Shown here: piece by piece, positions 13,587 to 16,500 of the stretch
Layout: every line of letters begins with the position of its first letter
Position numbering within the stretch: the stretch's first letter is position 1
Source: an uncultured Chloroflexia bacterium
GTDB lineage: Bacteria; Chloroflexota; Ktedonobacteria; Ktedonobacterales; JADMIN01
Assembly: GCA_963785845.1 (NCBI GenBank)
Contig: CAWAWP010000003.1
Span: 413,324 to 477,323 of the forward strand
Length of the DNA: 64,000 nucleotides
Reading direction: 5' to 3'
Notes under the pieces: generated by a model
The model's database searches: none
What the model was told of the DNA's origin: nothing
What the model saw: the letters and a program-made list of their open reading frames with translations, nothing else
Translations under genes and position numbers: made by a program

Positions 13587-16500
13587 TTAACTGATGGGGA
13601 CAGGGAGGGCGCGGGCGAGGAACTGGCCGGTGTAGGAGGCGGGGACCTGGGCGACTTCTTCGGGGGTACCTTCGGTGATCACCTGGCCGCCGCGATCGCC
13701 GCCTTCGGGTCCGAGGTCGATCACCCAGTCGGCGGACTTGATGACGTCGAGGTTATGCTCGATGACGACGACCGTGTTGCCGGTATCGACCAGCCGCTGG
13801 AGCACTTGAAGCAGGCGTTCGACGTCGGCGAAGTGGAGGCCGGTGGTTGGCTCATCGAGGATGTACATGGTGCGGCCCGTGGCGCGGCGCGAGAGCTCCG
13901 TCGCCAGCTTGATACGCTGGGCCTCGCCACCGGAGAGCGTGGTGGCGGGCTGACCGAGGCGAATATAGCCGAGGCCGACGGCGTTGAGGGTGCTGAGCTT
14001 GTTGGCGATTGCCGGCACCGCCGAGAAGAAGCTCAGGCCTTCCTCGACGGTCATATCCAGCACGTCGGCGATGGTCTTGCCTTTGTAGTGGATCTCCAGC
14101 GCCTCGCGGTTGTAGCGCTTGCCTTTGCAGGTCTCGCAGGGCACGTAGACGTCGGGCAGGAAGTTCATCTCGATGGTGAGCATGCCCTCGCCTTTGCAGA
14201 CTTCGCAACGCCCGCCCTTGATGTTGAAGGAGAAGCGGCCCGCCTGATAGCCGCGGAGCCGCGCCTCGGGCACCTGGGCGAAGATCTCGCGGATGGTGGT
14301 GAAGGCGCCGGTGTAGGTGGCGGGGTTGGAGCGCGGCGTGCGCCCGATGGGCGATTGGTCGATGTCGATCACTTTGTCGAGCGCGGCGACGCCCTCAATG
14401 GCGTCGTGGGCGCCGGGGCGGGTGTGGGCGCGGTTGAGCTTCTGCGCCAGCGACTTGTAGAGGATTTCGTTGACGAGCGAGCTTTTGCCGGAGCCAGAGA
14501 CGCCGGTGACGGCGATGAACTCGCCAAGTGGCAGCGCGACGTCGATATCCTTGAGGTTGTTCTCGCGGGCGCCGCGGACCACCAGCGATTGTCCGTTGCC
14601 GGGACGGCGGCGCGTGGGCGTGGGGATGGCGCGCTTGCCAGAGATGAACTGGCCGGTGAGCGAGCGCGGGTTGGCGGCGATCTCCGCCAGCGTGCCTTCG
14701 GCGACGACGTAGCCGCCGTGTTCGCCCGCGCCGGGGCCGATGTCGATGATGTGGTCGGCGGCGCGCATGGTGTCTTCGTCGTGCTCGACGACCAGCAAGG
14801 TGTTGCCGAGGTCGCGGAGCGAGACGAGCGTGCGGATCAGGCGGGCGTTGTCGCGCTGGTGCAGGCCAATGCTCGGCTCGTCGAGGATGTAGAGGACGCC
14901 CATCAGGCTCGAGCCGATCTGCGTCGCCAGGCGGATGCGCTGCGCCTCGCCGCCGGAAAGTGTGTTGGCGGAGCGGTTGATCGAGAGGTAGTCGAGGCCA
15001 ACATCGACGAGGAAGCCGAGCCGCGCCTGGATTTCTTTGAATATTTGACGCCCGATGATGCGCTCGCGGTCGGTTAATGGGAGGATGTTGGCGGTGATGG
15101 AGGTCGCTGCTGGTACGCCCAGCTCTCCCGCGGGAAGGGGGGAGACAGCGGACTTGCCGTTTCTGCCGTTTCTGCCGATCTTGCCGGAAATCAGGTTTTC
15201 CGCATCGGGGTTGTTGCCATTCTTGCCGGATTTCGCATTTTTGTCATCGGAGTTGAGGCGGTCAAAGTAGCGGCTGGCGTCGAGGATCGAGAGGTTGCCG
15301 ACCTCGACGATGTTGTGTCCGCCGACGGTGACGGCGAGGATCTCGGGGCGCAGCCGTGCGCCGTGGCAGACGGGGCAGGGGCGCGCGGACATGTATTGCT
15401 CGATGTCTTGGCGGGCGGCCTCGGAGCCTTCTTTATAGCGGCGCTCTAAGTTGGGCACGACGCCCTCAAAGGCGGTCTCGTGCGGGCGGCGCACGCCCTG
15501 GCGGTTGCGGTAGTAGAACGAGACTTCGTCGGGCGTGCCGTGGAGCACGATGTCGCGGGCAGCGTCGCTGAGGTCCTTCCAGGGGGTGTCGAGGCTGAAG
15601 TCGAAGCGCTTGGCGGCGGCGGTGAGGATCGTGGTGTACCACTGGCTGGCGGCGGCGAAGCGGCTCCACGGCTGGATGGCGCCTTCGTTGATGCTCAGGT
15701 CTGGGTTGGTGACGACAAGATCCTCGTCGATCTCCAGCTTGGTGCCGAGGCCGGTGCATTCGGGGCAGGCGCCTTTGGGGCTGTTGAAGCTGAAGCTGCG
15801 GGGTTCGAGCTCTTCGAAGCTGATGCCGTCGTAGACGCAGGCGAACTTCTCGGAGTAGAGGCGTTCCTCGCCGCCAATGATCGAAACGAGGACTACGCCG
15901 TCGCCGAGCTTGAGCGTCGTCTCGACGGAGTCGGCGATGCGCGCGCGCTGGTTGGCCTCGGGATCGACGGCGGGCGCGGCGCTCTCGACGGCGTAGAGCG
16001 CGGGGCGCTCGGCGACGCGAGCGAGACCAGAATCAACCACGGGTGAGAGTATACCTAACCCCTGATCCCCTCCCTGCGAAGAAAGGGGAAACTGGCTCGT
16101 GGTGGTGTCGCCGTTGCCGTTTTTGCCGGATTTCGCGTTTTCGACGGCGGAGATGTTGCCATTCTTGCCGGATTTCGCGTTTTCCACTTCCTCGTCGGAG
16201 GCGTGGCGGATGACGAGTCGGTCGATGACGACTTCGAGGGTGTGTTGCTTGTTCTTGTCGAGCTCGATCTCGTCGCCGAGGTCACGGATCTCGCCGTCGA
16301 CGCGCATGCGCACGTAGCCGGCGCGACGCATGTCCTCAAAGACGTTCTTGTACTCGCCTTTGCGGCCCTTGACCAGCGGGGCGAGCAGCAGCAGGCGCGT
16401 GCCGTCTGGCAGGGCGGTGACGGCATCGACGATCTGCTCGACGGATTGGCGCGTGACCTCGCGGCCGCACTTGGGGCAGTGCGGGTGACCGATGCGGGCG

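Follow-up and report, generated by a model that had tools for sequence, protein, structure and literature searches.

INTRODUCTION

Lineage-specific loop insertions that are driven by slippage are known from the Asn-rich low-complexity inserts of Plasmodium housekeeping proteins and from the so-called conserved signature indels. Dispersed repeats within one gene can also undergo ectopic gene conversion or template switching, which amounts to concerted evolution within the gene. Both kinds of event bear on the gene described here, a uvrA on the minus strand of a 64-kb stretch of DNA (hereafter the window, meaning the whole stretch that was analyzed) from an uncultured Chloroflexota bacterium. 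Canonical UvrA proteins comprise ~940–960 amino acids (aa). The protein encoded in the window has 1084 aa and two in-frame insertions, I1 and I2, that share an identical run of DNA.

A third described system is mobile. The name of the Rickettsia palindromic elements (RPEs) records their palindromic structure. These elements resemble miniature inverted-repeat transposable elements, are ~150 bp long, are present in 44 copies in Rickettsia conorii, and often lie in frame within unrelated genes (PMC10969869). An earlier interpretation of the window made from its letters (the sequence-only reading) had likened the uvrA blocks to RPEs, and had proposed that the same short element was inserted twice or was spread by gene conversion.

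The analysis reported below favors a different history. We consider it probable that I1 and I2 are old, slippage-prone hypervariable loops, and that a segment of I2 was copied into I1 in the lineage of this genome. A literature search found no relevant published description of these loops for Ktedonobacteria UvrA, or of signature indels in Chloroflexi.

RESULTS AND DISCUSSION

Two clean insertions in a class I UvrA

The uvrA open reading frame (ORF) spans positions 13587–16841 on the minus strand. Its product has the features of a class I UvrA: the full domain set (Pfam families UvrA_inter, UvrA_DNA-bind, and ABC_tran), all conserved motifs, and matches at E = 0 to the solved chains 9gxk, 2r6f, and 3zqj. 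Its nearest relatives are named Ktedonobacterales (Chloroflexota). The full domain set is shared with the canonical class I proteins of known structure (Geobacillus 2R6F, Thermotoga 3PIH, Mycobacterium 3ZQJ, and the 9GXK series), whereas in the window protein the UvrB-binding domain is longer by 83–84 residues and signature domain I by 56.

The boundaries of the insertions were set by HMMER alignments against 9gxk, 2r6f, and the isolated UvrB-interaction domain 3fpn. I1 (aa 214–299, 86 aa; positions 15945–16202, minus strand) stands in for a turn of 2–3 residues in the solved proteins, which the alignments show as a gap from 233 to 237 in 9gxk and from 231 to 234 in 2r6f. The site is a turn of the UvrB-binding domain, between a strand (200–210) and a helix (294–312), and the insertion breaks the UvrA_inter match at profile position 90 of 109. 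The UvrB-binding domain itself separates the halves of zinc module 1 (C122/C125 and C335). I2 (aa 531–586, 56 aa; positions 15084–15251, minus strand) displaces no residues of solved UvrA. It falls at a zero-length junction (469/468 in 9gxk, about 463/464 in 2r6f) within signature domain I, immediately N-terminal to the helix leading into the LSGGE signature. The sequence-only reading was therefore right that both blocks interrupt UvrA where the solved proteins are continuous, and it had placed I2 correctly. It had also placed I1 before the first zinc-finger module, which does not hold because I1 interrupts UvrA_inter, inside the UvrB-binding domain.

An AlphaFold2 model was built with 22 orthologues as input. 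Its overall confidence is moderate, with a mean predicted local distance difference test (pLDDT) score of 64.8. Residues 222–291 of I1 and 533–580 of I2 have pLDDT values below 50 and no secondary structure, and the elements that flank them are modeled. Both loops are thus predicted to be disordered surface segments that leave the UvrA fold intact.

An intein was considered and rejected. Pfam reports only UvrA and ABC families and no Hint domain, and the inserts are of low complexity and predicted to be unstructured.

The two insertions share homologous DNA

The 24-mer GTTGCCATTCTTGCCGGATTTCGC occurs as perfect copies at 15213–15236 and 16155–16178, and a third copy at 16113–16136 agrees at 22 of 24 positions. 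The number of such matches expected from 100 dinucleotide shuffles is 0. On the coding strand, these repeats belong to a nine-residue unit, NAKSGKNGN, which appears three times (aa 221–229, 235–243, and 535–543). The first unit of I1 (16155–16181, minus strand) and the unit of I2 (15213–15239, minus strand) each hold the exact 24-mer. The second unit of I1 (16113–16139, minus strand) lies 42 nucleotides (nt) downstream of the first in the coding direction and departs from it solely by the synonymous changes AAG to AAA and AAT to AAC. I2 has in addition a diverged second unit (aa 549–564; 15150–15197, minus strand; repeat family D1) that includes the 9-nt tandem repeat TGCCGTTTC, present in 2.6 copies at 15155–15177 with 100% matches (Tandem Repeats Finder, period 9).

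The resemblance extends well beyond the units. A direct repeat of 69 nt with 81% identity links 15173–15241 to 16115–16183 at a spacing of 942 nt (314 codons). A gapped collinear alignment obtained with blastn covers 15125–15241 in I2 and 16070–16183 in I1 (both minus strand), and matches 84 of 118 nt (71% identity; E = 7e-16 for the pair). This alignment spans two units on each side and ends in the tails FPLSSQGG in I1 (16068–16091) and SPLPAGE in I2 (15123–15143). The DNA sequences of the two blocks are homologous, and both blocks keep the reading frame and have the same orientation.

These findings bear out most of what had been noticed from the letters of the window. The identical 24-mer with its 22/24 variant, the units on the coding strand, and the shared frame and orientation are all as described. 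The degenerate copies near 15150–15200 are also real, as the 9-nt tandem repeat and the 69-nt direct repeat show. The proposed similarity of the FPLSSQGG and SPLPAGE tails holds within the 118-nt collinear alignment and is weak when the tails are compared by themselves.

Codon identity between the insertions

The first unit of I1 and the unit of I2 are identical at 28 of 30 nt. They agree at synonymous sites, including the use of AAA (Lys) and AAT (Asn), two codons that are rare in this gene; AAT encodes none of the 31 Asn residues of the core, yet it is present in both units. The perfect tract of 24–25 nt includes these codons and goes beyond what a shared peptide would require, as is typical of conversion or duplication. 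The chance that two independent encodings of AKSGKNGN would use the same codons is ~0.04, and convergence of the peptide is therefore unlikely.

A second measure is the length of the longest peptide that the two loops have in common. In the window UvrA this peptide is the 9-residue NAKSGKNGN, and in each of the other 118 orthologues examined it is at most 4 residues. By this comparison, the copy between the loops is private to this genome. Convergent selection would propose that NAKSGKNGN evolved independently in both loops for a function, such as a Lys-rich flexible contact, with no copying of DNA. Motifs rich in Asn-Gly and Lys do recur in I2 across the class, and runs of x-Asn-Gly (xNG) arise independently in I1 of several lineages. 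We nevertheless find this explanation very hard to credit given the identity at synonymous sites, the short shared peptides of all other orthologues, and a likeness that continues collinearly past the unit for 69–118 nt.

Both loops are old and hypervariable

Inserts are present at both positions in all 118 aligned Ktedonobacteria orthologues, which are 66–82% identical to the window protein. The carriers include the UvrA proteins of Ktedonobacter and Thermosporothrix (66% identity). Among these orthologues, I1 ranges from about 37 to 101 aa and I2 from 23 to 85 aa, and their sequences are little conserved. The top 120 homologues are 1004–1114 aa long, barring one protein of 1548 aa that has a duplicated N-terminal half. 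Both insertions are thus fixed in position and variable in length and sequence, as hypervariable loops are. On the strength of this alignment, I1 and I2 are old, lineage-specific hypervariable loops and not recent insertions. The sequence-only reading, which had favored insertion of an element, had itself held that orthologues from distant taxa carrying the same segments would speak for ancient loops, and the orthologues across the class do carry them.

The same two positions were compared in 63 diverse metagenomic UvrAs. Their lengths at the first and second sites run from 4 and 1 residues, the canonical state, up to 84 and 59. Many lineages are intermediate, with 9–34 residues at site 1 and 2–37 at site 2, and some have NG motifs at site 2. 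Because these diverse proteins also hold inserts there, the two turns are generally permissive, and they are much expanded in Ktedonobacteria.

Several characteristics of the loops are those of slippage-driven inserts as generally known. They are in frame, biased toward Asn, Gly, Lys, and Ser, and carry short-period repeats, namely the 9-nt tandem repeat of the window gene and the xNG runs in I2 of its relatives. They are also fixed in position, hypervariable, and predicted to be disordered. In two respects they differ from such inserts: the bias follows an x-Asn-Gly period of 9 nt and not homopolymer runs, and the two loops hold what appears to be a recently copied common block.

The comparison with relatives also bears on whether an assembly artefact created one or both blocks. 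Assemblers can be misled by repeats, and this gene contains them. However, the ORF runs through both blocks in frame and without interruption, both sites are filled in all relatives, whose assemblies are independent, and the blocks have diverged (71–81% identical) and are not verbatim duplicates. An artefact is accordingly an exceedingly improbable source of the blocks.

Some parts of I2 are conserved within subclades. The P0012–P0034 group has G(R/K)NGK..RVNLKLLKELRPDDLS in this loop, and the I2 sequences of the group formed by Ktedonobacter, Thermosporothrix, and their closest relatives (a group with P0084, P0102, P0118, and P0119) have KKKNGK...SLLGDPLAKID..GPLV.

Asn-Gly repeats are characteristic of I2

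Motifs were counted in I1 and I2 of the 118 Ktedonobacteria orthologues. An NG dipeptide occurs in I2 of 112 of them. The motif G[KR]NG is found in I2 of 53 orthologues versus 2 for I1, and tandem xNG (for example, NGTNGTNGTNGNGRNGK) in I2 of 53 versus 5 for I1. Two more specific markers of the copied block were seen in I2 only: KSGKNG in five orthologues, and a tail resembling PLPAGE in four (P0005, P0008, P0028, and P0033). In P0003, the closest relative (82% identity), AKSGKNGN stands at the equivalent point of I2, and I1 has only GRNGNIS. This distribution indicates that the Asn-Gly repeat character is native to I2.

The I2 unit of the window gene is therefore the putative donor, and the copy would have run from I2 to I1. 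I1 of the window protein also exceeds that of the nearest relatives by ~25–45 aa, which suggests that it was the recipient. It is unlikely that the copy ran from I1 to I2, or that both loops were filled from a third genomic locus. These alternatives gain from the fact that the direction is read solely from motif content in orthologues, that P0003 already has GRNGNIS in I1, and that the search of the source genome covers the 64-kb window. They are opposed by the near absence from I1 of KSGKNG, G[KR]NG, and the PLPAGE-like tail, all typical of I2, as well as by the placement of AKSGKNGN in P0003 and the additional length of I1.

A proposed history of the shared block

The DNA of both loops would be built from short in-frame 9-nt units of the form AAC-GGC-NNN, which encode x-Asn-Gly and may grow and shrink through replication slippage. 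In the lineage of the window genome, ~70–120 nt of I2, comprising two units and the SPLPAGE tail, would then have been copied in the same orientation into I1, 942 nt upstream. The sequence pattern points to ectopic gene conversion or template switching as the likely route, probably seeded by the Asn-Gly repeats in both loops. The 24–25 nt core could have been held identical by a later short conversion tract or by constraint on the peptide.

The pattern of mismatches can be used to evaluate this last step. When the mismatches in the 69-nt block are shuffled, a perfect run of 25 nt has p = 0.019. A perfect run of this length in a block that is 81% identical suggests a recent short conversion tract that lies over an older copy.

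The arrangement resembles known intragenic conversion in that a perfect tract lies inside a diverged block, both copies point the same way within 1 kb of each other and have rare codons in common, and a single lineage carries the event. It differs from the known cases in that the mechanism in uvrA is read from the sequence pattern only. The earlier suggestion that gene conversion had spread the element was close to the mark, as copying between the two sites best explains the identical 24-mer. The companion suggestion of a double insertion in the manner of RPEs is not supported.

Several observations weigh against a single, private transfer from I2 to I1 between otherwise neutral loops. The GRNGNIS in I1 of P0003 may mean that a first transfer occurred before the lineages split, and that there was more than one event. 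One further orthologue, P0015, encodes the Ser of its AKSGKNGN by AGC and the window gene by TCC, and the P0015 peptide may have arisen by convergence and not by common descent. The significance of the mosaic test is only moderate (p about 0.02). Further copies, or a third locus that served as donor, would be compatible with a source-genome search of the scope given above. Finally, the subclade conservation described in the preceding sections is a hint that I2 may not be wholly neutral in those groups.

We infer that the loops are functionally neutral. A selected role for the KSGKNGN/x-Asn-Gly module is doubtful, as is the related notion that it is a low-copy in-frame element with further copies elsewhere in the source genome. 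If the module were a functional unit whose duplication into the UvrB-binding domain had been adaptive in this lineage, it might tether DNA or UvrB through a flexible basic segment, or it might provide deamidation-prone Asn-Gly sites.

Mobile elements and foreign DNA

An RPE-like or MITE-like element might instead have landed in frame on two occasions in uvrA, and perhaps at other sites of the genome. (MITE denotes the miniature inverted-repeat class named above.) Elements of this kind are present in many copies per genome, within unrelated genes and between genes. Some features fit such an element. Two homologous in-frame blocks with slightly lower GC content lie in one essential gene and, as with RPEs, the short extra segments occur at positions compatible with the fold of an essential protein.

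Copies were sought at several scales. None was found in the 64-kb window by blastn, tblastn, or motif scans, in agreement with the sequence-only reading, and the copy count for the source genome covers this same window. The surroundings of uvrA in 11 related genomes (172 kb) gave none either. When 185,579 species genomes were scanned with a 21-nt pattern coding for KSGKNGN, no match fell in Ktedonobacteria, in a collection where the source genome is absent or masked; the 47 matches obtained were lone, all came from unrelated taxa, and most lay in short open frames. The 24-mer with two degenerate positions had no match in Joint Genome Institute (JGI) metagenomes.

Two protein searches add less. 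A profile of the two aligned modules matched only two unrelated repeat proteins among 1.84 billion representative proteins. This negative is weak because proteins with small inserts cluster with insert-free orthologues, and the cluster of the window UvrA was itself unmatched. When the 51-aa insert peptide was run through a word-indexed protein search, only nine candidates had words in common with it, none of them at E ≤ 10; the search is uninformative in that the source protein was missed too. The blank result of this second search is probably due to composition filtering.

The structure of the inserts is likewise unlike that of RPEs. No inverted repeats, terminal or otherwise, occur within or flanking I1 or I2, and neither insert has the palindrome or hairpin of an RPE. 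Neither has excess RNA folding energy relative to shuffled sequences (z = −1.24 for I1 and +0.53 for I2). No site is empty in any orthologue examined (118 of 118 are filled at both), so there is no insertion polymorphism, and the motif character of I2 is shared throughout the class. Together with the lack of any further copy outside uvrA in the data searched, these results make a mobile element highly improbable.

The low GC content of the blocks had been part of the case for insertion. Local GC at the inserts is 0.50–0.57 versus 0.65 for the whole gene, and GC at third codon positions (GC3) is 0.71–0.74 versus 0.89 for the core. The dip is real but modest, and stretches of the core fall equally low. 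Ala, Gly, Ser, Asn, and Lys are overrepresented in the inserts. The dip results mostly from Asn and Lys codons, with a further contribution from the lower GC3. A foreign origin based on low GC was therefore rejected, as amino acid composition accounts for the dip and the gene core dips as low.

Implications for UvrA

The two insertions identify specific turns of UvrA, one in the UvrB-binding domain and one before the signature-I helix, that tolerate large disordered insertions. Ktedonobacteria fill both turns with fast-evolving Asn-Gly repeats. This knowledge should be of use in annotating and aligning UvrA proteins and in engineering tags. The copy between loops would provide a small example of sequence exchange between dispersed low-complexity tracts in one gene. 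The event is ordinary in kind, as it combines low-complexity indels with intragenic conversion, and it calls for no new mobile element or repair mechanism.

Additional observations

The 1548-aa homologue noted above (P0002, from a JGI metagenome) matches UvrA_inter twice and UvrA_DNA-bind twice. It is not an intein-containing protein, and looks like either a chimeric assembly or a protein whose N-terminal half was partly duplicated in tandem. Two unusually long UvrA matches were encountered at metagenome loci L112 (9137–13750, ~1538 aa) and L075 (4937–8446, ~1170 aa). The L112 match holds an internal stop, and the surplus length of the L075 match is at the C-terminal end, away from the I1 and I2 sites.

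Near uvrA in the window, two adjacent paralogous ORFs of 220 and 421 aa (11403–13521, plus strand) contain repeats of the form LIERWNG..W..V. Pfam gives them only a weak match to DUF6087, and the repeats look propeller-like. A related locus (L049) has similar ORFs near its uvrA gene, with faint BNR/Sortilin matches. At 17800–18110 of L049 (plus strand), the plus-strand frames contain four occurrences of SGRNGR or GGRNGR, and the gene on the opposite (minus) strand encodes 228 aa and has no Pfam matches. This recurrence of the motif points to a DNA repeat within the 228-aa gene.

The fourth ligand position of zinc module 1 in the window UvrA (aa 338; positions 15828–15830) is Asp, in the context FACVYDG where the consensus is FACVYCG. 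Asp is likewise present at this position in 28 of 119 Ktedonobacteria UvrAs. Among diverse UvrAs, position 338 is occupied by C, D, G, H, or P, and the other eleven zinc cysteines that were checked are invariant.

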